A stretch of 64,000 nt of DNA from an uncultured virus (IMG/VR IMGVR_UViG_3300037504_000379) (Duplodnaviria > Heunggongvirae > Uroviricota > Caudoviricetes > Crassvirales): the IMG/VR virus record IMGVR_UViG_3300037504_000379, one strand, 5' to 3'. Shown here piece after piece: positions 1,652 to 59,859 of this stretch. Every line of letters starts with the position of its first letter. The stretch's first letter is position 1. The position numbers and the translations under genes were made by a program. Under the pieces are notes generated by a model. That model searched no databases. It was not told the DNA's origin and saw nothing but the letters and a program-made list of their open reading frames with translations.

Positions 1652-2152
1652 TCATAACACATTATAAACAACATTAAAACGATTGTTTATAATTATGTTA
1701 TAGTGCATTTGCCACCGCACTACGGCAGTTCAATATAAAAACCCCCACGCTCAACCATGACCTCCATTTCAGCAATTTCTTCTTTGTCATACCCTTCTTC
1801 AACCAGTTCCGTTTTGGTTCTAAGTTCACAAGGGTCATCATCTCCAGTCCAAATCAAATGACTGTTACTGGTTTTAGCATCACCCAGCCCACTCAATGTT
1901 TTATTACTCGCAACTACTATTAAATCTTGGTTAAGTTGCTCTTTACTCATTTTGTCAAGTTTCTTTTTTAAGTCTTTAAGTTTCATCTTTTTACTTTTTA
2001 TGCCTACCCGCAAAAAACGCACTATAACAAGCGGTCATAAAAAATTGCGGGGTCAGCGGTTAATATTTAAGTTACTACATTTATTTAAGTTTATTGGTTA
2101 GCGGAGTTTGTGCGGTTAAATCCGCAACTTTTCATACCGCCAGCCGTTATGA
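1652..2152 (-). mobile_element. hairpin-bounded gene cassette, locus A
   Basis: Minus strand: TCATAAC-GG long hairpin, GTTATAGTGC [ORF] GCACTATAAC, short hairpin with TCGTTTTAATG loop, GTTATGA. Confidence 0.8.
1720..1986 (-). CDS. cassette cargo, hypothetical protein (probable ATG at 1986)
   Basis: MKLKDLKKKLDKMSKEQLNQ...; the longer start in the ORF track lies inside the repeat. Confidence 0.7.
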   Translation of the reverse strand: MKLKDLKKKLDKMSKEQLNQDLIVVASNKTLSGLGDAKTSNSHLIWTGDDDPCELRTKTELVEEGYDKEEIAEMEVMVERGGFYIELP

Positions 2153-2446
2153 CTCTTTTTTAATACTCTTTGTCCTATAATCATCTTCACAATATTTTTG
2201 TAGATTAATCCCTAATTCACGAATTGCAAACTCACTTGCCTGGTGAATAAACATCCACAGTCGCTCTACATCCATTCCTGTTGTACTTTCTACTATATAT
2301 TCTGTTTCTGTTTCATCCACAAGAGCAAAACGTTTTAATAAAAAATTGTGTGCTTCCATAGGGGTCATTCCCGTCTCCAGGCATATGGGAAGCTTTACGC
2401 ATTTATGATAGTAACGCCTCACTCTCTCAGCCTTTGTCATACACAA
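2147..2446 (-). CDS. NinB-like protein
   Basis: RYYH...ETG...EAHNFL...STT pattern typical of NinB/YbcN-like proteins. Confidence 0.55.
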   Translation of the reverse strand: MCMTKAERVRRYYHKCVKLPICLETGMTPMEAHNFLLKRFALVDETETEYIVESTTGMDVERLWMFIHQASEFAIRELGINLQKYCEDDYRTKSIKKES

Positions 2447-2978
2447 GTAAGTTTAAATAGTCTTCTGTTATAAGCTCTACCCGCTCATCTACTTTATGAA
2501 CGCTCACTATCTCCGGTTCTATCCAATAAGCAATTCCATTCATTCCATATTGAACATCTCCATCTTCATCCTTAACCAGCCTCTCATGTTGCCTGACTAC
2601 AGCCTTAACCTTCTTTCCTGTCATAGACCTGAAACTCTCTAGCTGGCTACGTGACATTGTTGTTGTAAAGCCTTTATACCAAAGATTTTTCCAATTATTA
2701 TCGCCACTACCCACCATGTGATAACACGAAATAGGTTTATAGCTTATTTTTGTCTGCCTGTTTCCACGTTCTTCAGGAGGCTTGGTAAATTGAAAGACAA
2801 ACATTGGCTTCCCGTTTCGTGTCTTTCTCTCCTCTACGGACTTAAACGTAAGAGCATTCACCCCCACAGGAATATAAAGCATCTGTGTTTTAGACTTTCC
2901 ACTTTTAGACTTTACGTAACACATTTTGTCCGCAAACAAATCAGAAAGCTTTTCGTGTCTATCTTCGGTTAGAAACAT
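2427..2978 (-). CDS. hypothetical protein
   Basis: 183-aa ORF in operon. Confidence 0.7.
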   Translation of the reverse strand: MFLTEDRHEKLSDLFADKMCYVKSKSGKSKTQMLYIPVGVNALTFKSVEERKTRNGKPMFVFQFTKPPEERGNRQTKISYKPISCYHMVGSGDNNWKNLWYKGFTTTMSRSQLESFRSMTGKKVKAVVRQHERLVKDEDGDVQYGMNGIAYWIEPEIVSVHKVDERVELITEDYLNLLVYDKG

Positions 2979-3072
2979 ATTTAACTGTATTTAAACTAAT
3001 ATTACTGCCCTAATAGTAAATTAACTACTTATACTGTATCTTTAAGTTAAACTAACAGTATTTAAGCCGATA

Positions 3073-3765
3073 TTACTGCCTTATCGGTAACTTTACCGTT
3101 CCTACTATCTCTTTAGGCTGTACAATATAATACGTCTTATCAGAATAATATCTGTGACCCAACTCCTCAAGCTTAGGATAATGCTTAAACCTTGTGTACA
3201 CATAATCCCCTTCCTTGACAGCAGGATCATCGTAATACTTATCTACATAACGTATAGGCTCTGCTCTTTTAGCCAGCCTGTAAACATCCGAGTAATACTC
3301 GGTGGTTGGACGATGAATAATACTATCATGTTTCTTCTCTACGGGCTCTAAAAGCATATACCCATTAAGCATCTGACTCACTTCATTACGCTCCTTCATG
3401 TAAAGCCTGTGATAATCCATAACAATAAAAGTGCGATCATCTATCCTAAATAACCTCCCTTCTCGCTCACTTGTAGCAAAAGCACTGGATGAAAACCACA
3501 CCTCATCTCCCGACTCCACCTCAATGTCTGTCTCATAGTTATTTTTCTCGGTAGGTTCTACCCTGTCACATGCTGCTATCACTATGCCACTGCGTTCCAT
3601 ATGCTCACCATCTCCTGTGGCTGTCATATCACTAGCACCGATAGCCTCTCCTACTTTAACGTGTAAATTAAGACTTCCATAAGTGAGGGTAGAGTTACGA
3701 CCAAAGGTTTCGATAAGAACTTTTCCAGGAAGAGGCTTAGAGTTTAAAATATCATCTATCTTCAT
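3073..3765 (-). CDS. GroES-like protein with two tandem domains
   Basis: KPLPGKVLIE...VESGDEVWF and LNGYMLLEPV...VKEGDYVY. Confidence 0.6.
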   Translation of the reverse strand: MKIDDILNSKPLPGKVLIETFGRNSTLTYGSLNLHVKVGEAIGASDMTATGDGEHMERSGIVIAACDRVEPTEKNNYETDIEVESGDEVWFSSSAFATSEREGRLFRIDDRTFIVMDYHRLYMKERNEVSQMLNGYMLLEPVEKKHDSIIHRPTTEYYSDVYRLAKRAEPIRYVDKYYDDPAVKEGDYVYTRFKHYPKLEELGHRYYSDKTYYIVQPKEIVGTVKLPIRQ

Positions 3766-4018
3766 ATAAAAGAATTTTATCTGTGTCAACAATAGCTGTA
3801 TCGTCATCATTCATCTTAATACCTGCCGTAGATACACATATTACGTCTCCGCGTTTAAACTCTCTTTCCTCAGGCAGAGGCGTTCCTGCTACAAGAACTT
3901 CTGCCCAACGTCTTCGTTTACGGTTTTTCTTTTTAACTGTATCAGGAGTGATAATACTACCTTGTTTTTCTTTAAGAAATTTAATCATCACTTTTCCTGC
4001 CTTTGGCATTATTTCCAT
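3752..4018 (-). CDS. GroES-like co-chaperonin
   Basis: IMPKAGKVMIK, GSIITPDT, AEVLVAG, FKRGDVI, IVDTDKIL. Confidence 0.65.
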   Translation of the reverse strand: MEIMPKAGKVMIKFLKEKQGSIITPDTVKKKNRKRRRWAEVLVAGTPLPEEREFKRGDVICVSTAGIKMNDDDTAIVDTDKILLYEDR

Positions 4019-4189
4019 TTATTCAAACGTTAAGTTAAACTCATCTTTTAATTTAGCCATGGCTTGATTCTTACTTGCCATATAATGAAACCTGTCTTGT
4101 GGTGTTTTAGGAAGACAAATATCAAATGGTTTCCGCAAAGATTCAAGCCTAGCCTTTTCTTGTTCTGTATATTCTCTACGCTTTTTCAT
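4019..4189 (-). CDS. 56-aa protein resembling the Bacteroidota DnaX (tau) C-terminus
   Basis: Hand-translated MKKRREYTEQEKARLESLRKPFDICLPKTPQDRFHYMASKNQAMAKLKDEFNLTFE; fills the gap between neighbours exactly. Confidence 0.55.
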   Translation of the reverse strand: MKKRREYTEQEKARLESLRKPFDICLPKTPQDRFHYMASKNQAMAKLKDEFNLTFE

Positions 4190-4192
4190 ACA

Positions 4193-4604: not shown

Positions 4605-5180
4605 GCTAACAATGCATAAACAGAATTAAAACTCTGTTTATACGGATGTTATGGCACAAGCTACTGCAAGTAACCAAGTGCCTTCGCTTTTTCCTGAATA
4701 GCTTTCATATCACTTTCAGGGTAGCCCCAGTGTGGGCAGTATAATCCACCGTATCCATTATTGTGGTTTGTGTATTCACCAGTCTTTATATATTCGATAA
4801 AATCTTTTACCAATGCCCACATTGTCCCGCCATGATGCCATCCTTTTGGTGGGTAACCGTTTTTTGTATGCAAGTACATTTTTGTTTTATTATATTCATT
4901 ATGCATGTAAAGCCCACCCGCTTTCTGGAAGATGTAAGCCATATCTGCGTCTTTTTTGTACAGGAAAAACTCCCGCCCACGTAGGGCGATTTCCTTTATT
5001 ATTTCATTTACTATACTGATTCTACCTTCTTTAGTGTCGCCAGTGCCTAACATCGCATCATACGGCATGGCCTTGGTTTCTACTTGTTTGTCACTTTCGT
5101 TTTTCATATCTAATGGTATTTACTGTTTGATAATTTCGTTCTTTGTATTCGGCCACGACCGCATATGCGTAGCCGTTAGC
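4605..5180 (-). mobile_element. hairpin-bounded gene cassette, locus B
   Basis: Minus strand: GCTAACGG hairpin, GTTAGGCAC [ORF] GTGCCATAAC, short hairpin, GTTAGC; terminal hairpin nearly identical to locus C. Confidence 0.8.
4661..5107 (-). CDS. cassette cargo, hypothetical protein
   Basis: 148-aa ORF starting inside the hairpin loop; HGGT and WGY motifs. Confidence 0.75.
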   Translation of the reverse strand: MKNESDKQVETKAMPYDAMLGTGDTKEGRISIVNEIIKEIALRGREFFLYKKDADMAYIFQKAGGLYMHNEYNKTKMYLHTKNGYPPKGWHHGGTMWALVKDFIEYIKTGEYTNHNNGYGGLYCPHWGYPESDMKAIQEKAKALGYLQ

Positions 5181-40351: not shown

Positions 40352-40770
40352 GCTAACGGCTACTTATATGAGTAGTAGCCGATTTGAAATGCGAAACTTT
40401 AAAATAAATATAAATGTTAAACCGAGTGATAAGCCCTAATAATTGCACTACAACGGCTATTACTTATATAAATTGTTGTAGTGCGTTTTTTATATGAAAA
40501 CTTACAAATGGCACACACCAGAGGCACACTCTGATAATACCGAAACAATGAACGACTATTTAGATAACCACCTACCCGAATGTTTTAAGCCGATATTCCA
40601 AGATGGGACTTACGCTGAAATATGCAATAAAAACACAGGACAGATATTTGCAGTACACGCCTCTGGTGACGGTGATTTCTGCAACCACAAAGTAGAATTT
40701 GAGTTTATTCACTAAATGCACTACAACATCCGTATAAACAGAGTTTTAATTCTGTTTATATATTGTTAGC
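40352..40770 (+). mobile_element. hairpin-bounded gene cassette, locus C
   Basis: GCTAACGG 17-bp-arm hairpin, GTTGTAGTGC [ORF] GCACTACAAC, short hairpin, GTTAGC. Confidence 0.85.
40494..40715 (+). CDS. cassette cargo, hypothetical protein
   Basis: 73-aa ORF exactly filling the space between the inverted repeats. Confidence 0.75.
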   Translation: MKTYKWHTPEAHSDNTETMNDYLDNHLPECFKPIFQDGTYAEICNKNTGQIFAVHASGDGDFCNHKVEFEFIH

Positions 40771-41943: not shown

Positions 41944-42939
41944 ATGGCTAAAAAGAATACTTCCACAAAAGGAGAAAATCTTCAGAAGGCAATAGATAAT
42001 CTCAACAAAACTTATGGTCAGGGAACAATAATAAAGTTAGGGGATGCTCCGGTGAGCGACATCCCCTCTATTGATTCTGGTAGTATTGCGTTGAACCAGG
42101 CATTAGGTGTTGGTGGTTATCCAAGGGGGAGGGTTGTAGAAATTTATGGTGCTGAATCGGCTGGAAAAACAACATTAGCCTTACATGCCATAGCACAGGT
42201 ACAGAAAAATGGAGGCAGGGCTGTAATCATTGATGCGGAACATGCATTGGATACAGAATATGCAAAAAAACTCGGTGTTAATGTTGGTGAACTATTTATT
42301 AGTCAGCCTAGCGATGGTGAGAAGGCATTGGAGATAGCAGATCAATTGGTGCGTTCTGGTGAAATTGATATAGTTGTCATTGATAGTGTAGCAGCATTAA
42401 TTCCTAAAGCTGAATTAGAGGGAGAGATGGGTGACTCTCGCCTTGGGTTACAAGCTCGATTAATGTCACAAGCTATGAGAAAATTGTCTGGAAGCATAAG
42501 CAAAACGAATACGTGCTGCATGTTTATTAATCAACTTAGGGAAAAAATAGGCGTTATGTTCGGGAGTAACGAGACCACAACAGGCGGAAATGCCCTTAAG
42601 TTTTATGCATCAGTACGACTTGATATAAGAAGAATTGGTCAGATAAAGAATGGCGAACAGGTAGTGGGAAACAGTACAAGAGTGAAGGTGGTGAAGAACA
42701 AGGTTGCTCCTCCTTTTAGGAAGGCTGAATTTGATATTATGTATGGAGAAGGAATAAGTAGGGCAGCAGAGTTGATTGATTTGGGAGTGCAACATGGAGT
42801 GATTAAGCAGAGTGGCTCTTGGTATTCTTATGGAGAAACCAAACTTGGTCAGGGGAAGGAGACTGTTCGCCTTTTGTTTAAAGATAATGAGGAGTTAGCT
42901 GAGGAGATTGAAAAGAAAATATTGGACAAAATGAGCTAA
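41944..42939 (+). CDS. recA: recombinase RecA
   Basis: [47 protein letters not shown]. Confidence 0.98.
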
Positions 42940-43568
42940 CGGACAGCAATATGAAACGTGTGGAATTTAGCACTAACTTTACTATGAAAAACAACAGTAA
43001 TAATTAAATATTTTGAGCGTGGGATATATTAGTAAAAAACAAAGAGAAGAAATTAAGCAAAAGTATGATGGGCTTTGTGCTTATTCAGGAACGCCACTTG
43101 AGGATGATTGGCAGGTTGACCATGTAAAGCCACTTGTTAGAAATTGGTATGATGGCACTTCAATGTTTCCAGATGCTCATTGTGATGAAAACCTGATACC
43201 ATGCCAAAAGATAATAAACCACTACAAGGGTTCATTGGACTTGGAAACATTTAGAAACTGGTTTTTAGGTGGATTGCACGAGCGAATGGATAAGCCAAAG
43301 AATCCGAGAACCGAAAAATCAAAACGCAAAAAAGAATACTTGCAAAAAGTAGCTTCTTATTTTGGCATAACTCCAACAAAGCCCTTTAACGGAACTTTCT
43401 ATTTTGAGAGCGTGGGAAAAGAAAAAATTTAATTATGGTGAATTTAGCACAAACGATACTACGAAGCACAGCACTAAGCATGTTTTATATTGCATGTTGT
43501 AGTGTCGTTTTAATGCACTACAACGCTTGTGTAAACAGTCGTTTTAATGCTGTTTACACTGTGTTAGC
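42935..43568 (+). mobile_element. hairpin-bounded cassette locus D (cargo in loop plus empty cassette)
   Basis: GCTAACGGACA-GCAATATGAAACGTG [HNH gene] CATGTTTTATATTGC-AT-GTTGTAGTG-TCGTTTTAATG-CACTACAAC, short hairpin, GTTAGC. Confidence 0.85.
43013..43432 (+). CDS. HNH endonuclease (cassette cargo)
   Basis: CAYSG...WQVDHVKP...NLIPC...NHYKG; start codon uncertain (TTG). Confidence 0.8.
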   Translation: MSVGYISKKQREEIKQKYDGLCAYSGTPLEDDWQVDHVKPLVRNWYDGTSMFPDAHCDENLIPCQKIINHYKGSLDLETFRNWFLGGLHERMDKPKNPRTEKSKRKKEYLQKVASYFGITPTKPFNGTFYFESVGKEKI

Positions 43569-44937: not shown

Positions 44938-44952
44938 ATTAAAATTAAGTGT

Positions 44953-46125
44953 ATGGATAAATTAACACCTGAAAAGATAAAGCAGGCAAAAAAACTGTTT
45001 GAAAAAAATCCTGGTATAGGGAGATATAAGTTAAAGGATGAACTTGACGTAAGTGAGATGACAGCTAGGATTTTGGCTTTTGCCTTAAATAATCCTGATC
45101 TTATGTCTGAAGATACAGATATGGCTATTAAATTCCGCAAAAAAGAAGTGGAGCTTAGGCAGGTAAAGTCTAATTACAGGAAGCTGCTAGATAGATACGA
45201 TGAAAAAGAACAGCAGAACGATATACTTCTTGGCATTCAGCCAGAGGATGACATTTATCCTGAAATAAAGGAGGTGACTGATGGCAGTAAAGGAAGTACC
45301 ATTGCGATAGCGGTACATAGTGATGTTCATGCTGAAGAAAAGGTGGAACGAGATGTTGTCCTTGGGGTGAATGAATATAATCCTGATATTTGTAAGGCGA
45401 GAGAGGAATTGTTTTTTCAAGACCTCCTTAAAATTGTAAAGCATCACAGGAAAAACTATAAGATAGACACTCTTGTGCTTGGTCTTCTTGGGGACATGAT
45501 AAGTGGTTATATTCACGAAGACCTGCAAGAGAATAACTTTATGTCTCCCACTGAGGCAGTAATGTTTATAAAAGAATTACTTGTTAGTGGTATTAAGTTT
45601 TTGGCAGATAACGGAGATTTTAAGAAGATTGTTATTCCTTGTGCTAAAGGAAATCATGGAAGGACGACAAAGAAAAAAAGGTTTTCTACTGCTTATAAGA
45701 ACTCATATGAATGGATGATGTATCATGATATGAAGCAAACATTTAAGTCGTTTGGCGGATATGAGCATGTAGAATTTATTATTCCTAAAAGTGAGTTTAC
45801 CTACGTTAATTCATTTGATAAGAGCCTGCTTTTTTCTCATGGAGATCATTTTGGTTTTGCAGGGGGTGTTGGTGGTTTTCAGGTTCCTTTGAGGAGATGG
45901 GCTTTAAATCAGCAGATGGTACAGCACTTTGATATGGCTTTTATTGGTCACTGGCATCATGTCATAAACCCCACAGAGAATGTATGGGTTAATGGTAGTG
46001 TTGTAGGTCATACGCCTTATGCTTCTGGTCATAGTATTCAACCTACTACTCCGGCACAGTTATTAGTGTTACAGCATCAGAAGTATGGCTTTATAGCACA
46101 TAATAAGATAGTGTTGAATCGCTAA
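44953..46125 (+). CDS. calcineurin-like metallophosphoesterase with N-terminal HTH/coiled coil
   Basis: SDVH, LGDMISG, GNHGR, HGD, GHWH. Confidence 0.85.
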   Translation: MDKLTPEKIKQAKKLFEKNPGIGRYKLKDELDVSEMTARILAFALNNPDLMSEDTDMAIKFRKKEVELRQVKSNYRKLLDRYDEKEQQNDILLGIQPEDDIYPEIKEVTDGSKGSTIAIAVHSDVHAEEKVERDVVLGVNEYNPDICKAREELFFQDLLKIVKHHRKNYKIDTLVLGLLGDMISGYIHEDLQENNFMSPTEAVMFIKELLVSGIKFLADNGDFKKIVIPCAKGNHGRTTKKKRFSTAYKNSYEWMMYHDMKQTFKSFGGYEHVEFIIPKSEFTYVNSFDKSLLFSHGDHFGFAGGVGGFQVPLRRWALNQQMVQHFDMAFIGHWHHVINPTENVWVNGSVVGHTPYASGHSIQPTTPAQLLVLQHQKYGFIAHNKIVLNR

Positions 46126-46265
46126 CGGACAGCGGTATGATGCGGGGCTTTGGATGTGTGTCGGCCTTGTGCGGCACTGCATTATGACCGCATGTTAGCT
46201 GTCTGGGCGGTCAAGTTGGTACACCGCTGATTAAAAGTACCAACGTAGTAATTTATTTTTTAGGG

Positions 46266-46931
46266 ATGGCAAAAATAGAACTTTTAAATTTATACGCTGG
46301 ACTTGGTGGTAATGTCAAGAAATTGGATAGAAACAAATACAATATTACATCAGTTGAGATTAATCCTAAGATTGCAAAATTTTATCAGGACAACTACCCC
46401 CAGGATAAAGTGATTGTTGGCGATGCTCACGAATACTTAATTAAACACTATAACGAGTATCGCTTTATCTGGAGTTCAATTAATTGTCCTACCCATTCGA
46501 GAGCTAGGTATTGGGCCTCTAAAGGAGGAAAGTATGAACCCGAATATCCAGACATGGGTTTGTACCAGGAAATTATTTTTCTTAAACATTTTTTTAATGG
46601 TGATTGGGTTGTGGAGAATGTAAAGCCATATTATGAGCCACTTATCAAGCCAACAATTGAAATGGATAGACATGTTTTTTGGTCAAATTTCACAATCACC
46701 CCTTTCCAGGTTGATAGTAATTATGTTTTTTCAGGAAATGATATGAAACGAGTTTCCGAAATGCTTGGTATTGAAATAAACAAGTATTCATTTGGAATTA
46801 GAAAAGATAAGCTTATTCGTAATTGCGTTAACCCTAACCTGGGTCTTCACATCCTTAACTGCTTTGAAAAAGCAGAAGCGGGCGGGCAAAAAATAAATTA
46901 CGGGCTATTTGCACAGGATTCTATTAAATAA
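46266..46931 (+). CDS. DNA cytosine-5 methyltransferase-like protein (cassette cargo)
   Basis: LNLYAGLGG, WSSINCPTHS (PC motif variant), VVENV, RH.FWSNF. Confidence 0.8.
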   Translation: MAKIELLNLYAGLGGNVKKLDRNKYNITSVEINPKIAKFYQDNYPQDKVIVGDAHEYLIKHYNEYRFIWSSINCPTHSRARYWASKGGKYEPEYPDMGLYQEIIFLKHFFNGDWVVENVKPYYEPLIKPTIEMDRHVFWSNFTITPFQVDSNYVFSGNDMKRVSEMLGIEINKYSFGIRKDKLIRNCVNPNLGLHILNCFEKAEAGGQKINYGLFAQDSIK

Positions 46932-47042
46932 ACGGTCGTAGCCTTGCAGCTAACGGAAAGCTATATGCACATCGTAGCGATAGCGGAGTTGTGTATATAG
47001 CATGTTGGCACACGTTAAATTTAAAACCAAATACTAAACTAT

Positions 47043-47333
47043 ATGGATAAACAATATTTAATAAATCAAGACACTGCAGAATACAACCACGAACTTTTAA
47101 TAGAATGTGGGTGGGAATCTGAACATGAGAAAAATCATATTTACTCATGGGAAGAATATTCTAAAAGTTGGTATATTCAAGACCAAGACGGAAGTGGATA
47201 TGAGGTAAAGATTTCTCTTAGACAACATGAAAACTATGCGCTGCTTTATGTAAATGGACAGTGGGTAGGGAGAGCACTTTATTTAAGTGATGCTGAATTA
47301 GTAGTCAATGCTATAAAAACAGCTTGCACTTAA
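47043..47333 (+). CDS. cassette cargo, hypothetical protein
   Basis: 96-aa ORF between GTTGGCACAC and GTGTGCCTAAC. Confidence 0.75.
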   Translation: MDKQYLINQDTAEYNHELLIECGWESEHEKNHIYSWEEYSKSWYIQDQDGSGYEVKISLRQHENYALLYVNGQWVGRALYLSDAELVVNAIKTACT

Positions 47334-47430
47334 TGTGTGCCTAACGGACAGCAATATGAAACGTGCGACAAATACGCAGGAACGATAATACGAAGCACCA
47401 CAGTAATAATTAAATATTTTTTTTGAAGGG

Positions 47431-48276
47431 ATGGAAATAAACAAAAATTATAATGAATCAAATCTTGAAACAATGGCAAGAATGCCTGATTGTTTTGTGG
47501 ACTTAACTGTAACTTCTCCACCTTACGATGGATTAAGAACATACAACGGTTATTCTTTTCCATTTGAGGATATTGCAAAAGAACTTTATAGGATAACTAA
47601 AGAAGGTGGTGTAGTGGTATGGGTAATTGGTGATGCAACAACCGATGGAAGTGAAAGTGGCACAAGTTTTAGACAGGCTTTATTTTTTCAATCTCTTGGT
47701 TTCTTTATACACGATACAATGATTTATGAAAAAAATGGTTCTGCTTATCCCGCTAATGATAAAAGCAATAGATATAGCCAAGTTTTTGAATATATGTTTG
47801 TGTTTAGTAAAGGGAAACCAAAAACACACAACTTAATAAAAGATAGAAAAAATAGATGGGAAGGAAGTAAGACTTTCGGCAACCAAAGTAACAGAAAACA
47901 AAATGGTATTTTAGAAAAAAAAGGAAGTAGGGAAACTCCTGAATTTGGTTATAGATATAATATTTGGAAATACAATAATGGTTATGGTTATAGTACAAAA
48001 GATGAAATAGCATTTAAACATCCTGCAATATTTCCTGAAAAATTAGCATACGACCATATAAAAACCTGGACAAACGAAGGTAATTTGGTTTACGATTGCT
48101 TTATGGGAAGTGGAACAACGGCAAAGGCAGCTATAAGTGCAAATAGAAATTGGATAGGAAGCGAAATAAGTGAAGAATACTGCCAAATAATAGAACAAAG
48201 GCTTGAACCATTACGGAACAATCTTTTTTCTAATTGCTTTGAAAAAGCAAAAGCGGGCGGGCAAAAAAATATTTAA
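47431..48276 (+). CDS. DNA N4-C/N6-A methyltransferase, beta class (cassette cargo)
   Basis: VTSPPY, HPAIFP, DCFMGSGTT, GSEIS. Confidence 0.92.
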   Translation: MEINKNYNESNLETMARMPDCFVDLTVTSPPYDGLRTYNGYSFPFEDIAKELYRITKEGGVVVWVIGDATTDGSESGTSFRQALFFQSLGFFIHDTMIYEKNGSAYPANDKSNRYSQVFEYMFVFSKGKPKTHNLIKDRKNRWEGSKTFGNQSNRKQNGILEKKGSRETPEFGYRYNIWKYNNGYGYSTKDEIAFKHPAIFPEKLAYDHIKTWTNEGNLVYDCFMGSGTTAKAAISANRNWIGSEISEEYCQIIEQRLEPLRNNLFSNCFEKAKAGGQKNI

Positions 48277-48444
48277 TTATGGTCAAACTTGTAGAAACAT
48301 TGAAACGAAGCACTACACTAAGCATGTTTTATATTGCATGTTGTAGTGTCGTTTTAATGCACTACAACGAAGGCATAAACAACGTTTTAATGTTGTTTAT
48401 GGCATGTTAGCGTCTCCAAAGAAGAAAACCCTAAAACTCTATCT

Positions 48445-50493: not shown

Positions 50494-50603
50494 TATATGA
50501 CCGAGAAATCAAAAACACAGATAAATTGATTAATAAATCTTAAAATGTTGAATATCTTTATATATACGATCTATGTTTGAATTTATGAAAGAAGCTTTTG
50601 ACC

Positions 50604-52057: not shown

Positions 52058-52151
52058 TGGCTGTTTTGGGGAATAGTGTTTGAAATAAATTATTCTATTA
52101 AATTTTAATTAATTATTTGTTTTTGTTATTAAATTTTCTTATTTTTGAAGT

Positions 52152-52349: not shown

Positions 52350-52355
52350 TTAATT

Positions 52356-52931
52356 ATGCCACACAAAAAACAACACATCACCTCAGACTTTATGTCTTGG
52401 GAAGAAAGTAAACGAGTTATTAACTTGCTTTATCGGGACGAAGATTATTGGTATTGTCTTCTTTTTACTATCGCCACACATTTTGGGCTTCGCATTAGTG
52501 ATGTCAAAAAATTAACTTGGGATGATCTTATTCGCAAAGAGAAAGTAGTGCTTAATGAGAAGAAAACTGGTAAGAAGAAGATTATTGAGACACCGGAAAA
52601 CATTAAAGATTTTGTACTCACCCTTTATGGAAAAATAAAACCAAAGGGTAAATATATTGTCAGTGTTAAACACACGCAGACAATAAATCAAAAGCTAAAG
52701 AGACTTAAAGAGAAGTATAACATAGACATAGGTAATTTTTCTACCCACACATTTCGCAAGACGTTTGGAAGGCATTATTGGGAGAAGAATGGCAGGAGTG
52801 AATACGCCCTGTTTATGCTTATGCAACTTTTTAATCACAGTAGCTTGGATACAACCAAGGTGTACCTTGGAATCAGGCAGGATGAATTTAATCAGATATA
52901 TAGTAATATAGCAGAAGAGGCAATTGTATGA
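52356..52931 (+). CDS. tyrosine recombinase (catalytic domain only)
   Basis: GLRISD, EKKTGK, HTFRK, FNHSS, TKVYLG = R-K-HxxR-H-Y. Confidence 0.92.
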   Translation: MPHKKQHITSDFMSWEESKRVINLLYRDEDYWYCLLFTIATHFGLRISDVKKLTWDDLIRKEKVVLNEKKTGKKKIIETPENIKDFVLTLYGKIKPKGKYIVSVKHTQTINQKLKRLKEKYNIDIGNFSTHTFRKTFGRHYWEKNGRSEYALFMLMQLFNHSSLDTTKVYLGIRQDEFNQIYSNIAEEAIV

Positions 52932-53332
52932 AAGGAATTATTAAGCAGAACATTCGTTTAGCACCGACAAGGTTTTTTCTTGACGTGGTGCTTGGAGATT
53001 ACGAGTTTTTTAAGGAAGTGCTGAAGAGTGATAAATATTATGAAGAAGGGGCTTTCGACTTTGAGGAAGTAGAGATAAGTAAAAGTAGTGAAGGAGCTAT
53101 TTGGACTTTAATAGATAAGGTGAGCGAGGAAGATGACAAAAACGATGTTACCAAGTTTCTGATGTGGGTAAAGGATAAGGATGACGTTATCACTATAAGT
53201 CATGAGGCAATACATATAACGTGGGAGATAAATCGTTATACGAATATTAGGATAGCTGAAGATGCGCAGGAGTTTCAGTGTTATATGCATGATTATATTA
53301 TGGAACAAGTGCTTAGTTTGTCTAAGGGCTAA
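52928..53332 (+). CDS. hypothetical protein with HExxH motif
   Basis: ISHEAIH...QEFQCY. Confidence 0.65.
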   Translation: MKGIIKQNIRLAPTRFFLDVVLGDYEFFKEVLKSDKYYEEGAFDFEEVEISKSSEGAIWTLIDKVSEEDDKNDVTKFLMWVKDKDDVITISHEAIHITWEINRYTNIRIAEDAQEFQCYMHDYIMEQVLSLSKG

Positions 53333-53776
53333 CGGAAAGCTATATGCGCCTGTTTTAATGGCGTATATAGCATGTTGGCGCAAGTACGGTTTTATAAACA
53401 AAAAAATATTGATATGAAAAAAATAAATCAAAAAAAATTAAGCCGCAATGCCTATAAATATAATAGGCGTAAGTTTAAAAAAACAACAAAAAACTTTATT
53501 AAGGAATTAAAGAAACATTTGAAAAAGAGAAGTAAAAACGGTGATACTTCCTTTAGTGCCGAAATTGATGCTGATAAAATTTATGCAGAATCATACATGT
53601 TAGCTGTTAGATGGTTAAAACGTTATACAGATTTAGATATTACAATCTATGAAAATTCTGATGTAAATGTTCATGGAAAAAAATATGTAAATAGTATGAA
53701 CGTACACATATATTGGTAGTATTTGCGCCTAACGTTGGTATAAAATGCGTTTTAATGCATTTTATAGTATGTTAGC
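53328..53776 (+). mobile_element. hairpin-bounded gene cassette, locus F
   Basis: GCTAAC-GGAAA-GCTATATGCGCC/GGCGTATATAGC-AT-GTTGGCGCAAGTAC [ORF] GTATTTGCGCCTAAC, short CGTTTTAATG hairpin, GTTAGC. Confidence 0.85.
53414..53719 (+). CDS. cassette cargo, basic hypothetical protein
   Basis: MKKINQKKLSRNAYKY...; the upstream ATG in the ORF track is part of the repeat. Confidence 0.7.
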   Translation: MKKINQKKLSRNAYKYNRRKFKKTTKNFIKELKKHLKKRSKNGDTSFSAEIDADKIYAESYMLAVRWLKRYTDLDITIYENSDVNVHGKKYVNSMNVHIYW

Positions 53777-53841
53777 ATTATTTAATTTCCTTTACATAAC
53801 AAAGCTGCTTGGTTAAGAAAATGATAAAAAACTTAAATAAG

Positions 53842-54111
53842 ATGAATAAACATTTAGAACACATCCTTAAAACAATGTGTATGTATGCCAGTGTTGATTT
53901 TAATAAACTGGACGTAAGTGAACACTTGTGGCAGGATAAGCACGTGTGGAGCAGTAAGACACAAGATGAGTTTAAAAAATGGTTTGAAGGTTATATGTCC
54001 TCAAATAAGGAAGCCAGAAAAGACCTTATGAGAATTCCTACAACAAATAAGAAAATGATTCGTAGATTTGTAGAACAGTTTGTATTTAATTATGGATTTA
54101 AAGCGGAGTAG
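53842..54111 (+). CDS. hypothetical protein
   Basis: MNKHLEHILKTMC...; start uncertain. Confidence 0.6.
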   Translation: MNKHLEHILKTMCMYASVDFNKLDVSEHLWQDKHVWSSKTQDEFKKWFEGYMSSNKEARKDLMRIPTTNKKMIRRFVEQFVFNYGFKAE

Positions 54112-54113
54112 TT

Positions 54114-54230
54114 ATGCCTAAGAAATTAAAGAGAAAGCTTAAGAAACAAGCAAAGAAGAAGTTTGGGACAGCAAAGTCAAAGAGAGCTAAGCGTTACATT
54201 TATGGGACGCTAAACAAGAAAAAGAAATAA
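54114..54230 (+). CDS. highly basic 38-aa peptide
   Basis: MPKKLKRKLKKQAKKKFGTAKSKRAKRYIYGTLNKKKK; fills the gap between neighbours. Confidence 0.55.
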   Translation: MPKKLKRKLKKQAKKKFGTAKSKRAKRYIYGTLNKKKK

Positions 54231-54233
54231 ACT

Positions 54234-54512
54234 ATGTCAGGGTTAGGAGATTATCCTCCAGGGGCAGAAAATGATCCTCGCGCTCCCTGGAATCAGCATG
54301 ACGAAGAAGAAGAGTGTAGCGAGTGTGGCAAGCCAGCCATGTACGTTCAATCTTTGTGGAGTGAAACACCTCTTGGTACACCAATAGAATATAATTATTA
54401 TTATTGCGATGAGCATTTCCATCAGGCCTTTGAGAACTATCTTGAAGACGTAGAGGGTTATGTGTGTACAGAAGAAGATTTTATGCAAGAAGAAAATATT
54501 GAGTTGTTGTAA
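54234..54512 (+). CDS. hypothetical phage protein
   Basis: YPPGAENDPRAPWNQ motif plus CxxC. Confidence 0.7.
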   Translation: MSGLGDYPPGAENDPRAPWNQHDEEEECSECGKPAMYVQSLWSETPLGTPIEYNYYYCDEHFHQAFENYLEDVEGYVCTEEDFMQEENIELL

Positions 54513-54588
54513 AGTTTTAAGGTTTTCTTTTGTTTAAACCGATTTAAATTTGTATATTGTCCTTAAAATTAGAAAGTGATGAATTTAA

Positions 54589-54996
54589 ATGTTAAAAGCA
54601 ATAGATGTGAAAATAACAGAACAGACAAAGATTAAAGATTTAATACCGGAAGGTATGTCCTTAAAAGATTGTGAATCTACCGAATGGAGTATTCATATTG
54701 ATTTTAAGCCCAAAGAGAAAACGTTTGAGGATTACGAGAAGGATTATTATAGAGATCGTCTTCCTAAAGAAGCAGAAGATCTTCTCATGCTTAATGTTGA
54801 TGCTGAAGATTTGAATATAGAAAATAGGCTTGGGTTGCTTTGGTATATTGTAAAAGATAAAGGAGGAACCCTTGAGGATTTATCAGATTTATTATTTCGT
54901 ATAGCACAACCAAATGAAATGAGTGAACCGGATATATCTAGTAGAGTATGGAAATTACTTCCACAATCATTTATTGAATCATTTAAGGAGGAATAG
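54589..54996 (+). CDS. hypothetical protein
   Basis: 135-aa ORF. Confidence 0.65.
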   Translation: MLKAIDVKITEQTKIKDLIPEGMSLKDCESTEWSIHIDFKPKEKTFEDYEKDYYRDRLPKEAEDLLMLNVDAEDLNIENRLGLLWYIVKDKGGTLEDLSDLLFRIAQPNEMSEPDISSRVWKLLPQSFIESFKEE

Positions 54997-54999
54997 ATT

Positions 55000-55167
55000 A
55001 TGAAAGATATGGAGAAGCATAATGCCTACGTGTGTCCCCAATGTAGAGAGCCTTTGGTTGGAAGAATTTCTGTATTGGGAGATTACTTGTATTGTCGTAA
55101 ATGTAAAAACCTTTTTACTCTTGAATACATACAATCGTATTGGGGGTTTGATTCTTTGGGGACATAA
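55000..55167 (+). CDS. small zinc-ribbon protein (55 aa)
   Basis: Hand-translated MKDMEKHNAYVCPQCREPL...YCRKCKNLF. Confidence 0.55.
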   Translation: MKDMEKHNAYVCPQCREPLVGRISVLGDYLYCRKCKNLFTLEYIQSYWGFDSLGT

Positions 55168-55948
55168 CCATCACATACCCGTCAAATTTCAATTAAAATA
55201 CAAAAGAAGGGGTAATACACCAGAAAATAAAATAAAGGCTTTAAAATGGATAATTATGGTTAAAAAGAAAATATCAATATGGGGTAATCCACATCTTATT
55301 AAAGATCACATAAAGGAGCTTAGGAGATTTATTCGTGAACAAAAAGACCTTGATCCTGAGTTTAATGAGATAATTAACGAACTTATATGGGAGCTTGTAG
55401 ATAATAAACCTCAGAAAAAGAGATTTGATGATGAAGGTAGATAAGATTTTTTTGTGATAAAATTAAATAGAAAGACATGAAATATTTCTTATGGTTTGTG
55501 TATAGTGTAGCGTATTATGTGTTGTTGGGGCTGTATAAAATATTTAGGCTTATTCCTTTGAGGAAACAAAAATCTGGCAGCAAATAATATTTAGTGCCGT
55601 AAATTAGTAAGACGATTATTAATAATATTCAATGCAAAAGATAAGGCAAATAACCCCTCTTAGAGCTTTATATTTTAACTTAAACAGCTTTCGAGGGGTT
55701 TACTACTTGCGGAATATTTTAAAGCCTAAAATGGAAGAATATGAATGTACATACTAATAGATAAAAACAATCATTATGGGTGGCTTAAGAGTAAATATTA
55801 GAATAGGATTGTACCACTTACAGGTACATTGGAACTGGAAGGTTGAGATAAAAAGGAATAATATGCATATAGGACTACCTTACGGGTGGTTTAGTGTGTA
55901 TGAGTTTAAACCTTTTAAAAAGTTTTGATTGTATTTTAAGGTAGGTTC

Positions 55949-56479
55949 ATGGATAAGAAAGTCTGTATATATGCCCTTGTATCATCATATGATTGCTATG
56001 TTCAATATATCGGCAAAAGTATTAATCCAATACAAAGATTAAATACACATATTGCCAATGCAAAATACAATCGAAAAAATAAGTATTTGTCTTTATGGAT
56101 AAATGATGTATTGCGTCAAGATCAGCAGATTCATATTATAGTTATTGAGGTGTGCAATGAGGATCAATGGAAAAATAAAGAAAGAAAATGGATAAAATAT
56201 TTTGGTTTAAACAATTTGCTTAATATTGATGAGGGAGGTGACGCTTGGCTAGAACAGGGACTATCAAAAAGACATGAGCATAAAAACAAATCATCTGAAG
56301 AATTTTTATTAATATTATACGATAAAATAAACGACCGATATTATACTGCCAACAAATATGCTCCACTGGCACGTATTGTAGGAGTAGACAGGAGAACCAT
56401 GAAAGCATGGCACGAAGATGGTGTTAAAGGCAAATATAAGAAGCAATATCATTTATTAGAAGGAGAATATGTTAAATAA
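55949..56479 (+). CDS. GIY-YIG endonuclease with C-terminal HTH
   Basis: CIYAL...YIGKS.NP..R...H, E..WI, LLN...GG. Confidence 0.8.
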   Translation: MDKKVCIYALVSSYDCYVQYIGKSINPIQRLNTHIANAKYNRKNKYLSLWINDVLRQDQQIHIIVIEVCNEDQWKNKERKWIKYFGLNNLLNIDEGGDAWLEQGLSKRHEHKNKSSEEFLLILYDKINDRYYTANKYAPLARIVGVDRRTMKAWHEDGVKGKYKKQYHLLEGEYVK

Positions 56480-56494
56480 TCCACAAAGAAAGGA

Positions 56495-56773
56495 ATGGTT
56501 ATGACAAAGTATAGGAAGAAACCAGTAGTAATAGAAGCTAAGCAGATAAAGCCGGGAACAGAAGAAGATATTAAAAGGTGGTCTAATGGAAAGGTTTATG
56601 CCTCTCCTGTATTAGAACCGACAGAAAATAATCCGTCAGGAGTATATTGGCAAATTAATACTTTAGAAGGAGTAATGACTGCTACTATAGGTGATTATAT
56701 TATTAAAGGCGTAAACGGGGAATTTTATCCTTGTAAACCAGATATATTTCATAAAACATATGAGAGAGTTTAG
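56495..56773 (+). CDS. conserved phage protein (YRKKPV...TLEG...GDYII family)
   Basis: YRKKPVVIEA, INTLEG, GDYIIKGVNGEFYPCKPDIF. Confidence 0.8.
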   Translation: MVMTKYRKKPVVIEAKQIKPGTEEDIKRWSNGKVYASPVLEPTENNPSGVYWQINTLEGVMTATIGDYIIKGVNGEFYPCKPDIFHKTYERV

Positions 56774-57190
56774 TTTGTGGATGTTTTTCTATATATGGGC
56801 TTAATTATACTATTCAGGGGGTGTGTTCGTGCGCCTGAATCGTCAATCCGCAACCCCGCCCCCGTCTTTATTTTGAACTTTTATAGTATCTTTTTAATTT
56901 TTTGTATATTTGTAAAGCAATCAGACAAATAAAGTACAAACTATAAACTAGCCAGGAGGACAAAATTATGACTCAGACAAAGAAACCAGGACAAATTGAT
57001 AGCCTTAAAACCTGCATGGCTAGGGCTGATAGTGCTAACATACTTCAAAAACTGGATAAATGAAGTATGAGTATAATCAGACAAACAAAGAGTGTGTAAT
57101 TTCTCACACTTTTATATATTTCTCTGCATTTGAAATAAATAATAGTGTTCCATTTTGAAACAATATTAAAACCTACTAAATCAAACTATC

Positions 57191-57646
57191 TTGCCAGTAC
57201 AACCAATAAGATTATATGAGCGTCTGTTTATATCCCTTCCGTTTGCCCTGGATAAGCTTTCTAATAATCATAATATCAATCAAACAAAACTTATTATATT
57301 AATGTGTATTAATAACGCTTACAGGGCTAACAGCAAGATAAAACGCAAAGATATTATTCAAGTCTTACAGATTGATGCTATATATACTAGTAAAATGTTA
57401 GTGCAATTAAAGAAAGATGGTTATATTATACAGACGAATACTTATCTTTTAACAGGCAAAGGGACAAGACTTTTAAATACGTTCTCTGTTCTTACCAGTA
57501 ATTATTTAACCAGGTTAGAAAAGAATTCTATTTATTCCTTTGCGGATTATGCTAGTAAAAATACAAGAGTTAATTCATACAAGTATAAAAAGAAGAAAGG
57601 GATAATAAAAGAGCCTGAAAAGAGTAAATATAATAAGTTGTTGTAA
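57191..57646 (+). CDS. MarR-like winged-helix protein
   Basis: L.QLKKDGYI...YLLTGKG; start uncertain. Confidence 0.55.
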   Translation: MPVQPIRLYERLFISLPFALDKLSNNHNINQTKLIILMCINNAYRANSKIKRKDIIQVLQIDAIYTSKMLVQLKKDGYIIQTNTYLLTGKGTRLLNTFSVLTSNYLTRLEKNSIYSFADYASKNTRVNSYKYKKKKGIIKEPEKSKYNKLL

Positions 57647-57829
57647 TATATATAGTGTTGTTTGTCCACAAAGAATAAAACCACCGGAATTTAATTGCCT
57701 TCCAAAACCCTTACTAATCCTACAAAACTAAAATTAATTGTAAATTTTTTGGTCTAAAACTTGACTAGTGTTATTTTTTTTACGTACTTTGTAAACAAGT
57801 TCAAACGTAAAATTTAAAATTTATCAATT

Positions 57830-58033
57830 ATGAATTATCAATATCAAGTTATGCTGTTCAATGCGAACGAGTACAATAAAAGTTTAGATTGTTTAAGTAT
57901 TGATACTTATTACACAAACAAAAAAGATGAAGCAATTCAAACAGCAAAAACAGAGTGTAAAAAGCATAATTATGTAGCTGTTATCAGTGACTTAAAAAAT
58001 AGAACGAAAAAGAATATTGTCATAAACCATTAA
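57830..58033 (+). CDS. small hypothetical protein
   Basis: ORF with AT-rich leader. Confidence 0.6.
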   Translation: MNYQYQVMLFNANEYNKSLDCLSIDTYYTNKKDEAIQTAKTECKKHNYVAVISDLKNRTKKNIVINH

Positions 58034-58044
58034 AATTTAAAGTT

Positions 58045-58263
58045 ATGAATTATCACAAAAAAGAACTAAACAAAGTTGATCCGTTGAATTCAGAGTATGC
58101 GCCTACCTTTAAGGTGATGAACGAAAACGGAGAGTCAAAATGGATAGACTTAAAAACTGAAAGTGCAAAAGAACTGATTGTCTGGCTAGCTGAGAACTAT
58201 TATGAGGCTTATGTATTAGCAAAAGATTATATTGAATCAGATAATTTTGAGTTAAATGTATAA
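58045..58263 (+). CDS. small hypothetical protein
   Basis: ORF with AT-rich leader. Confidence 0.65.
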   Translation: MNYHKKELNKVDPLNSEYAPTFKVMNENGESKWIDLKTESAKELIVWLAENYYEAYVLAKDYIESDNFELNV

Positions 58264-58459
58264 CCTCTATTCAACTGAAACAACAAAGGATGTTAAACGT
58301 ATAATGTTTAACGTTGCTGAGGCAGAATACCGGACTAAACTTGTTCTTTTAAAATATAGAATTGAGCCGGATAAATTTAAACGAGCTGCTTCTCTTTTGT
58401 GGAGACTTGTATTAAATTATTATAGTCCGCAAAAGGTAAAACCAACGAATTTATTTTAA
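58256..58459 (+). CDS. small hypothetical protein (paralog at 59887-60042)
   Basis: Lies within the 214-bp duplication. Confidence 0.6.
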   Translation: MYNLYSTETTKDVKRIMFNVAEAEYRTKLVLLKYRIEPDKFKRAASLLWRLVLNYYSPQKVKPTNLF

Positions 58460-58490
58460 ACACTTAAAACCCATTATTATGAAAACACAA
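58277..58490 (+). repeat. 214-bp imperfect direct repeat, copy 1
   Basis: Matches 59860-60073; the 3' ~70 bp are identical. Confidence 0.9.
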
Positions 58491-58634
58491 ACAATTAAAA
58501 AAGACTTAGTAATTTACAAAATAGTAGCCTTTGCGCTTATTGTTGCGGCTACTACGTTTTTAATGATTGCCTTTTAAACCATTCTAAACGGGGGTTCGAT
58601 TCCTCCGTATGGTTCTAACCAAAAACCAACGCTT

Positions 58635-58856
58635 ATGGATTACATTTATAAAAACAAGCCTAGAAAATCAAATAAGTTTGGAGCGATGAGTTTATATTAT
58701 GACGGTATTTATTATTTCCCTTCTGATATAAAAGAATCTGACAAACGAAAAGACAAGCCTTTTGAAATACAAGGCGTTTATTATAGAGGTAAATGGTATC
58801 AAGATACTTTTTATATAACAAATGAATTTAGGGAGTTTCTTTTAAATGCCCTATAA
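58635..58856 (+). CDS. hypothetical protein
   Basis: 73-aa ORF whose TAA is part of CTATAACGG. Confidence 0.65.
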   Translation: MDYIYKNKPRKSNKFGAMSLYYDGIYYFPSDIKESDKRKDKPFEIQGVYYRGKWYQDTFYITNEFREFLLNAL

Positions 58857-58974
58857 CGGGCGAGTGTATGGCAATGTAAGCCACGCACTAAACTTTGAAT
58901 TGAAACAATAACCTAACTGGCTTATTTGCTATACACATTGTTAGCAACTGGGCGGTTTTAAAAACGAAAATATT

Positions 58975-59268
58975 ATGATGTACGCAAGTAAAATAGAAGT
59001 AAAGTATGAGCCACAAAAAGTCAGATATCAACGAGAAGTAGAGCTACCCGATAGACTACTTACACTTGAAGATATAGGTAAGCACCTAAAGGAAGGTGAA
59101 AAGTTTGTATTCTTCCAACGTGAAGAGGGTGGGCTTGGACTACCTGTTGATTACATAAGCATACATGGTTACAGGCTTGAAACTGATGAGGAAGTAAAAG
59201 CAAGGGTAGCGAAAGCAGAAAAGTATAACGAAAACTACGAGAAGTTTCATGCGAAGTACAGAAAGTAG
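58975..59268 (+). CDS. cassette cargo, hypothetical protein
   Basis: 97 aa; YRLETDEE motif. Confidence 0.7.
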   Translation: MMYASKIEVKYEPQKVRYQREVELPDRLLTLEDIGKHLKEGEKFVFFQREEGGLGLPVDYISIHGYRLETDEEVKARVAKAEKYNENYEKFHAKYRK

Positions 59269-59383
59269 CCTTGTTGCTAACGGCACACAGCTATGAGTAG
59301 TGCGGGAATTACAGCACTGACTTTGATACGAGTATTAACCGCTCCCGCTTCTTTTTTAAGCGTGGGCATAAATATAAATAAAG

Positions 59384-59716
59384 ATGAAAAAACAGATTAC
59401 AGTAAAAGAAAGAAACAGTTGGGAAGGCGAAACATTTAATTATGTAATATATGTTATTCCCGAAGAAGAAAACCAAATTCGTGAAAAATGCGAGAAATAT
59501 GGCGATGGTAGTTTAACGGTGCAAGAAACCAACTACACCGATGAAGAAATAAAAAAGATGAATGCAGCATCCAGCAACTTATATATGGACTTTATAGCAC
59601 CGTATGAATTAAAGGGAAACGCACTAAAAAAATGGGAAGAATTTGGTGATTGCTTTTACAAAGGTGTTGGTTTAACAAAATTAAAAGCGTTGGAAGAAAA
59701 AGAAGCACAGCACTAA
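59384..59716 (+). CDS. cassette cargo in hairpin loop, hypothetical protein
   Basis: 110-aa ORF. Confidence 0.7.
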   Translation: MKKQITVKERNSWEGETFNYVIYVIPEEENQIREKCEKYGDGSLTVQETNYTDEEIKKMNAASSNLYMDFIAPYELKGNALKKWEEFGDCFYKGVGLTKLKALEEKEAQH

Positions 59717-59859
59717 CCTTACTACGAGCTACGACACCCGCATTACTCATAGCTGGTGTTGTAGCATCGTTTTAATGTACTACAACATATGAATAAAGAA
59801 AGGTGTTTTTAAAATTGCGGTAAAATGAAACAGAAAATTATTGACAGAATAGAAGAAAC

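Follow-up and report, generated by a model that had tools for sequence, protein, structure and literature searches.

Seven hairpin-bounded loci in a crAss-like phage fragment: a putative integron-like gene-cassette system without IntI

Introduction

A stretch of 64,000 nucleotides from an uncultured virus of the Crassvirales (IMG/VR record IMGVR_UViG_3300037504_000379; the whole stretch is called the window here) carries seven loci in which small genes are bounded by hairpins and by short TAAC and GTT words. Are these loci parts of a gene-cassette system, and if so, does this system work like an integron? The loci, with ten small cargo genes, are scattered over 58 kb on two gene blocks, and all follow one hairpin grammar that is always on the strand of the local genes. 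An initial annotation, made from the letters alone, had taken them for individually mobile cassettes of integron-like logic. We confirmed the seven-locus grammar. The integron-like reading is supported in part, in outline; the crossover point, the unit borders and the proposed "nesting" of cargo had to be corrected. We consider it fairly probable that the seven loci are the docking sites, with their cargo, of an integron-like, site-specific phage gene-cassette system that does not depend on IntI.

Results

The seven loci share one grammar

All loci were read and their arms were checked by coordinate (Table 1). The word CTAACGG was found 11 times in the window against 3.0 expected, and GTTTTAAT 16 times against 7.8 expected. 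None of 100 shuffles reached 11 or 16, respectively, and 8 of the 11 and 10 of the 16 copies lie within the loci. With the arms verified, the words above the shuffles and 8 sites recovered by a covariance model (see below), the claim that seven co-oriented loci share one grammar stands.

An empty docking site consists of (G)CTAAC, 1–5 unpaired nt, an 11–13 bp stem with a GTTTTAAT loop, (A)T and GTTAGC, and it sits on or beside the stop codon of the upstream gene. The TAA within TAAC is the stop of the upstream open reading frame (ORF) at five of the seven loci (A, D, E, F and G); a TGA abuts the word at C, and at B no ORF of at least 50 aa ends there. The outer words of the loci are complementary to each other, and the last hairpin of a locus forms with them a self-contained site, the resident docking hairpin. 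The units fill the space from the first word to this hairpin. The short closing hairpin followed by the complement of the first word had been described in the initial annotation, with G correctly given as the exception; that hairpin is, however, the resident docking hairpin.

Within a unit the order is GG, a hairpin with TATG in its 5′ arm, AT, an arm beginning with GTT and, further on, a complementary arm ending in AAC. Type I units (A, C, E1, E2, F and G1) have their gene flanked by the GTT arm on one side and by the AAC arm on the other. In type II units (D, E3 and G2) the first hairpin encloses the gene, and the same small conserved loop caps the GTT/AAC stem. The type II form explains the "cargo inside hairpin loops" as well as three hairpins that look empty (43496-43524, 48340-48368 and 59758-59786), and a second topology of one two-stem rod fits better than nesting. 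The resident and cassette hairpins of the window are of different sequence types, the cassette type being marked by TATG.

The cargo ORFs are flanked by inverted repeats, reported as 9–19 nt and as 10–19 nt. The start of the cargo is the reverse complement of its end, as first claimed, in 9 of the 10 units; locus B lacks the start arm and hence has no cargo-closing stem. Six of the nine stems are perfect, two carry one bulge and one has a single A·C pair. The flanks of D and E3 are a shared chassis, with 25 nt identical at 42936 and 47341 and 119 nt that are 83% alike at 43419 and 48263, and this chassis holds different cargo, an HNH gene in one case and a methylase gene in the other.

A third, AT-rich inverted repeat closely brackets the type II cargo gene, at 47406-47423/48263-48280 in E3 (18 nt, 100% complementary) and at 43000-43014/43422-43436 in D, and G-rich boxes lie just inside the third repeats of type II units. 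A blind count of long-range GTT...AAC stems was uninformative (289 vs. 199–261 in shuffles), and a permissive hairpin scan was likewise too noisy to use. A CUGAUGA-like motif in the common hairpin was tried as a hammerhead core and rejected as merely stem sequence.

Inverted repeats around genes raise the alternative that the units are non-autonomous transposons, either like miniature inverted-repeat transposable elements or like IS200/IS605, moved by a transposase or by nearby homing nucleases. The 9–19 nt repeats that flank the cargo fit this view, as does insertion 3′ of a fixed tetranucleotide, which is where IS200/IS605 elements insert, and the window contains a TnpB gene (50808-52052) as well as HNH and GIY-YIG genes. 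A protein-domain scan, however, found no HUH/TnpA or DDE transposase in the window, and target duplications were not seen. The inverted repeats vary between units, with the adjoining hairpin as the conserved part; the unit ends are inverted repeats, whereas the ends of IS200/IS605 are not inverted repeats of each other; and a nuclease is encoded by only 1 of the 10 cargo genes. We consider this alternative highly improbable.

The TnpB gene (OrfB_IS605, Cas12f-like) has no TnpA nearby, and its 3′ end (52015-52057) is common to other contigs of sequencing runs X1 and X2, where it forms loose ends. It is probably an insertion sequence element with a guide-RNA region, separate from the cassettes. 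The sequence GCTAACGG at 50701, upstream of TnpB, was set aside, being at chance level (3 background matches vs. 3.0 expected).

The stems covary and the sense strand is the folded one

Eight window sites and 11 sites of other phages, 19 in all, went into an alignment and a covariance model. Both sides vary in 8 of the 11 pairs of the inner stem. The covariation score was 0.348 when compared with 0.148 after shuffling, and none of 500 shuffles reached 0.348; 83.5% of the cells were paired, against 30–44% when the partners were slid. With E-values from 6.5e-14 to 1.1e-5, the model recovered the 8 window sites. Each is on the same strand as the genes around it, where the sites scored 34–67 bits vs. 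15.6–21.6 bits at the same places on the opposite strand. Unit G1 was weak in this model (E 0.39 only). Folded as DNA, the sites reach −6.8 to −12.4 kcal/mol, and the shape is an outer stem of 4–6 bp and the inner stem, with an asymmetric internal loop between the two.

The 24 stems of the window contain 257 Watson-Crick pairs, 17 G·T, 2 A·C and 4 other mismatches, and the G of TATG is in a G·T pair in 8 of 9 cassette-type hairpins. The 17 G·T against 2 A·C pairs indicate that the sense strand is the folded one, as DNA or as RNA.

If the fold is one of RNA, the hairpins may be processing or stabilizing stems in polycistronic transcripts, with flanks that travel with the gene and with exchange by ordinary phage recombination. 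The placement of all sites on the sense strand, the bias towards G·T, whole ORFs enclosed by stems, and a conserved loop sequence on covarying stems, like that of protein-bound RNA hairpins, are what this explanation would predict. Rfam, in a copy that has no attC model, gave only a tRNA in the window and no family for the hairpins, at gathering scores and with E up to 5. Among the listed sequencing runs that contain the stretch, none was an RNA run. The RNA explanation also leaves unexplained why the unit ends rebuild the same core only on circular joining, why the breakpoints at the TAAC word are confined to 4 shared letters, and why arrays lie directly upstream of a Xer-like recombinase gene in other phages (see below). 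We regard it as unlikely.

Whole units are gained or lost at the TAAC word

Contigs of the likely source run (X1) and of other tidal-flat runs (X2–X4) were placed on positions 40001-60000 of the window. The joints come from assembled contigs, 1–2 per joint, and are those among the matches listed; their shorter side spans 21–36 letters at a likeness of 90, an error-prone range. Contigs of related strains pass over locus C (40358->40725; one contig in X2 and one in X4), locus D (42941->43527; X2 and X4) and locus E (46123->48366; X4, with only 4 shared letters). Every such joint connects the TAAC word to the resident (last) hairpin, and all units of C, D or E are gone. The comparison of empty and filled alleles proposed in the initial annotation thus gave breakpoints on the TAAC word, and, with unit ends that pair with each other and outer words that pair, it supports the claim that each unit can be gained or lost on its own, by a logic like that of integrons.

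The point of exchange differs from the one first proposed, top-strand G|TT to the right of the hairpin. The retained hairpin is the last one, which implies that units enter at TAAC|G, each with its hairpin 5′ of the gene; the crossover would be on the left side of the hairpin and inside AACG (TAAC|G). An X3 contig carries a closed small-loop hairpin in place of the HNH gene. An X2 contig runs from the end of F's cargo into a D/E3-type hairpin arm, which suggests shuffling. A further joint (46120->53328; 7 shared letters, side of 23) was set aside as ambiguous, since several units begin with the same word.

Could the same losses arise by homologous or microhomology recombination between dispersed repeats, in the manner of the T4-type promoter-terminator cassettes (PeSLs) and aided by the phage RecA? 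The 25–119 nt repeats common to loci, the RecA encoded by the phage and the near-identical ~50-nt hairpins that flank units of IMG/VR arrays all speak for it, and mini-circles also arise from PeSL exchange, as indicated in the account of these elements (PMC2839356). At locus E, however, just 4 letters are common to both sides; resident and cassette hairpins differ in sequence type; and paired ends specific to each cassette are not predicted. Promoter-like sites (57 vs. 57.0 expected) and terminator-like sites (6 vs. 6.9) were at background in a scan that lacks Bacteroidota promoters. Recombination between repeats appears quite improbable as the explanation.

A Xer-like recombinase lies beside related arrays

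The initial annotation had reported no intI/attI platform. We found no IntI, in agreement with it, but the window does encode a tyrosine recombinase of 191 aa, whose link to the sites is not supported. This protein is the sole PF00589 match among the 79 window ORFs scanned, and it scored 26.1 bits on TIGR02249 (integron integrase; cut-off 265). Its gene lies 400 nt upstream of locus F, one gene away. It was found neither in 5 hairpin-bearing records nor in the hairpin loci compared, and a role as partner of the sites is not supported. Its family, of bare-catalytic-domain tyrosine recombinases with 186–207 aa, is common among phage contigs and comprises 75 protein clusters and at least 228 viral loci, many on ~100 kb contigs.

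A different recombinase accompanies the sites elsewhere. In three of five hairpin-rich contigs, a PF00589 gene for 266–270 aa lies beside the array, 0.3–2.4 kb downstream of it. Among relatives of this ~266-aa protein, sites were present at 10 of 17 loci, all upstream of the gene and on its strand; the 10 include the contig from which two training sites had been taken, and at several of the 7 loci with no site the upstream sequence is short or missing. The ~266-aa recombinase scored 187 bits on the XerA model (cut-off 220) and 157 bits, in two stretches, on the integron-integrase model (cut-off 265), and its PDB matches were the XerA-type 4a8e at 7.5e-40 and IntI4 at 4e-29. By its sequence, the array-linked recombinase is Xer-like. 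In one such IMG/VR array (L249, 4270-4333), the TAAC word of the last unit is followed by ~60 nt that contain no hairpin, just before the Xer-like recombinase gene; this segment is a candidate attI-like site.

The site family is spread among phages

The exact 30-mer hairpin was found in 10 IMG/VR contigs from unrelated phages, and the resident-type hairpin pattern in at least 132 stretches, often as arrays whose units have paired ends. Scans with the covariance model, as the initial annotation had suggested, returned the 8 window sites and, in a separate scan, 148 matches from 90 sources. Flanks of the D/E3 type surround other genes in L005 and L009. Among GenBank phages, BLAST gave only 3 matching records, all of uncultured huge phages. 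The hairpin is present in only 2 of ~185,000 species genomes, so it is not a host repeat.

One member of the family has been published. Qi et al. (2023) described clusters of attC from virulent phages, Polaribacter phage P12002L among them, and filed them as integron attC sites and as clusters of attC sites lacking integron-integrase (CALINs); HattCI called one family member (PMC9892861). Our model placed sites in P12002L (NC_028924) at 30000-30061 and 30901-30962 (E 2.6e-8) and at 38871-38941, between methylase genes. Read by eye, the P12002L_attC1 primer listed in the supplement of that study appears to correspond to the site at 30000-30061.

The window and its context

The protein-domain scan (muzzle-protein domain, RecA, exonuclease and primase genes) identified the window as a fragment of a crAss-like phage, whose genome extends past the 64 kb. 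Two divergent gene blocks meet at ~38.7 kb. Across 38000-40000 the GC skew passes from −0.30 to +0.26, with the change of sign at ~38–39 kb, where the blocks diverge; this switch is a candidate replication origin. If it is the origin, the sense strand of both blocks would be the lagging-strand template, a relation that is confounded with transcription. In integrons, folding of attC is favored on the lagging-strand template, according to the part of PMC8946536 drawn on here.

The host is probably a member of the Bacteroidota, because the window has a TAnnTTTG promoter-like repeat and a copy of the hairpin is present in an Aequorivita contig. A 25-nt motif at 39005-39029, found again at 56899-56923, contains the Bacteroidota-type TAnnTTTG promoter box. 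Near and distant DNA searches of GenBank phages gave no relative of the window, only matches to methylase genes. The exonuclease gene had no close IMG/VR relative (1 locus, 26% identity), and its best JGI metagenome match was 62%, on a 1.4-kb contig. G001 and G002 have in common with the window only one small gene and the hairpins.

Three further observations concern genes near the loci. A 214-nt direct repeat of a small gene (90% identical; 58277-58490 and 59860-60073) lies on either side of locus G, and in an X1 contig the first copy runs directly into the DNA beyond the second, which may be a variant that lacks the intervening 1.6 kb or an assembly fork. In an X4 contig, 424 nt of recA (42149-42574) are swapped for 1480 other letters, which may represent an intein, an intron or the insertion of a homing gene in a related strain. 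ARAGORN called a tRNA with a 4-base anticodon inside recA (42376-42469); it has no Rfam support and is probably spurious.

Table 1. Positions of the loci, their hairpins and cargo genes, and of the recombinase gene, in the window
Feature	Coordinates	Strand	Remarks
Locus A	1653..2149	-	TAAC word 2149-2146, its TAA the stop of ORF 2147-2446; model E 6.5e-14
A, first hairpin (long)	arms 2140-2129 and 2044-2031	-	
A, cargo-closing stem	2028-2019 with 1706-1697	-	
A, resident hairpin	1693-1661	-	closing word 1658-1653
Cargo gene A	1720..1986	-	~88 aa; no family match
Locus B	4605..5180	-	word 5180-5175; local hairpin 5174-5151; model E 3.4e-12
B, cargo end word	4657-4648	-	
B, resident hairpin	4643-4614	-	closing word 4610-4605
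Cargo gene B	4661..5107	-	148 aa; phrog_14313, function unknown
Locus C	40352..40770	+	word 40352-40357 abuts TGA of ORF 40145-40351
C, first hairpin	arms 40363-40378 and 40457-40473	+	split by ~85 nt
C, cargo-closing stem	40475-40484 with 40718-40727	+	
C, resident hairpin	40732-40761	+	closing word 40765-40770
Cargo gene C	40494-40715	+	ORF, 73 aa
Locus D	42935..43568	+	single type II unit; word 42935-42940 is the recA stop
D, hairpin around HNH gene	arms 42946-42957 and 43482-43493	+	
D, closed R-side hairpin	43496-43524	+	
D, resident hairpin	43527-43561	+	closing word 43563-43568
Cargo gene D	43013..43432	+	HNH endonuclease, phrog_2118, E 2.8e-22
Locus E	46121..48411	+	three consecutive units after the stop of the exonuclease gene; four sites inside 2.3 kb
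Unit E1	46127-46954	+	type I; C5-methylase-like gene 46266-46931
Unit E2	46955-47345	+	type I; ORF 47043-47333
Unit E3	47346-48368	+	type II; N6/N4 methylase 47431-48276
E, resident hairpin	48372-48403	+	closing word 48406-48411
Tyrosine recombinase gene	52356..52931	+	191 aa, catalytic domain only; R, HxxR, H and Y present
Locus F	53328..53776	+	single unit, of type I; ORF 52928-53332 stops in the word 53328-53333
F, hairpin	53337-53373	+	
F, cargo-closing stem	53374-53383 with 53723-53733	+	
Cargo gene F	inside 53372-53719	+	ORF
F, resident hairpin	53736-53769	+	closing word 53771-53776
Locus G	58854..59786	+	two units, resident hairpin absent; word 58854-57 is the stop of ORF 58635-58856
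Unit G1, long hairpin	arms 58864-58882 and 58920-58936	+	type I
Unit G1, stem	58940-58948 with 59273-59281	+	
Cargo gene G1	58975-59268	+	ORF
Unit G2	arms 59288-59306 and 59737-59755	+	type II; around ORF 59384-59716
G2, closed hairpin	59758-59786	+	

Discussion

How would such a system work? The empty docking site would be a hairpin of the folded strand at the end of a core gene, with an outer ..TAAC/GTTA.. stem, an asymmetric internal loop, an inner 11–13 bp stem and the GTTTTAAT loop. The mobile unit would be a two-stem rod whose core reads, in order, the end arm ..yyyyAAC, GG, the stem of the first hairpin, AT and the start arm GTTyyyy... This core would be continuous only in a circle: joining the end of a unit to its start would rebuild, in both types, a rod with the core of the docking site, with the small conserved loop capping one end and the cargo gene capping the opposite end. 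A tyrosine recombinase akin to Xer and IntI would cleave the sense strand, in its folded form, within the 5′ ..TAA|C word and swap this word with its counterpart in a docking site or in a second unit. In this way units would come to be stacked head to tail after the stop codon of the host gene. The circular intermediate, the exact point of cleavage, the folding of single-stranded DNA rather than RNA and the kind of enzyme are what we infer from this anatomy. The enzyme would be encoded outside these 64 kb, unless it is the 191-aa protein.

Several results weigh against this scheme. No circle or excision junction was seen among the assembled contigs, which were the sole data type. The ~266-aa Xer-like gene is not in the 64-kb window, where tblastn with it matches only the 191-aa gene at 23% identity, and the site was found at 0 of 80 loci of relatives of the 191-aa recombinase (36–43% identity; 922,776 bases). 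The G·T pairs and the co-orientation with genes are equally compatible with an RNA structure. Three loci depart from the grammar, with no start arm in B, a split first hairpin in C and no resident hairpin in G. Contigs of X2 and X4 lack the genes 40806-41288 and 41394-41858, which flank tRNA-His (41296-41371), through joints (40772->41291 and 41374->41856) whose breakpoints carry no hairpin words; such gene-sized indels next door indicate that the region is plastic regardless of hairpins. In other phages, pairing of a unit's own ends was moderately above imperfect controls (15/40 vs. 82/1520, and 19/47 vs. 415/2060 in a second test). Finally, P12002L_attC1, the only family member so tested, was among six sites the single one for which recombination by IntI1 was not verified (PMC9892861).

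If the cassette reading holds, it may be extended, tentatively and with somewhat less than even confidence, to a "distributed integron" of lytic phages, made of docking hairpins of the folded sense strand at the stops of core genes across the genome, dumbbell cassettes whose gene can sit in either of two loops, and a minimal Xer-type recombinase. The recombinase would come from elsewhere in the genome or from a co-infecting phage, or would be the 191-aa catalytic-only protein. New genes would enter the chassis where the conserved terminal loop lies, and if this is true, the loop as entry point would bear on how cassettes are born.

Integrons are thought to be bacterial and to depend on IntI and its special domain. 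The present case suggests that the capture of genes on folded DNA evolved, or was simplified, in phages, with (i) another type of recombinase, (ii) a mirrored strand logic and (iii) docking sites across the genome. The window contributes, at the level of strains, whole units that are present or absent at one fixed word; it also contributes docking sites dispersed over stop codons and units of type II. Its methylase and nuclease cargo is relevant to the arms race with hosts, and current integron finders would miss or mislabel such a system.

Comparison with known systems

IS200/IS605 elements differ in that no Y1 HUH TnpA is present in the window and in that the unit ends are inverted repeats. 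T4-type PeSLs, as described in the portion of PMC2839356 used here, are similar in that stem-loop modules recur around accessory genes of plastic regions and bring about the gain and loss of these genes. A PeSL, however, combines a sigma-70 promoter with a terminator and acts through recombination between repeats (PMC2839356), whereas our hairpins have no T runs, their borders are site-specific, and neither promoters nor terminators are enriched in a scan that, as said, lacks those of Bacteroidota type.

Close relatives are the arrays with a Xer-like recombinase in uncultured IMG/VR phages. These belong to the same site family by the model, and they have TAAC/GTTA borders and units whose own ends pair. 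There, one array ends at the recombinase gene, whereas here seven loci are scattered and no such gene lies within 64 kb; the cassette hairpins here are of the distinct TATG type, and type II units occur. In the literature searched, with subscription journals outside its scope, we found no phage cassette system described as having a Xer-like recombinase of its own. The initial statement that no named system has this architecture needs a qualifier, as the literature contains one family member, listed there as a predicted attC of a phage CALIN (PMC9892861). In the parts of that study available to us, no phage recombinase, pairing of cassette ends or gain and loss among strains is described.

The features of integron attC sites used for comparison were taken from sections of PMC8946536. 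Like attC sites and CALINs, the sites described here are imperfect palindromes that fold into two helices around an unpaired spacer, with conserved AAC and GTT cores and with a unit start that pairs with the unit's own end; the arrays are stacked and co-oriented, whole units are gained and lost, and DNA methylases are among the cargo. In contrast to integrons, no IntI is present, and on TIGR02249 both the window recombinase (26 bits) and the array-linked one (157 bits) are below the cut-off. With its hairpin on the 5′ side of the gene and its folded sense strand, the site mirrors attC, which lies 3′ of the gene and folds on the bottom strand. The terminal loop is conserved in sequence, and the gene can be inside a hairpin. 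Docking sites are dispersed at gene ends, with only F near a recombinase gene, whereas integrons have a single attI beside the integrase. By membership the system is not an integron, given the lack of IntI, the mirrored order of strand and gene and the conserved loop, but it works like one.

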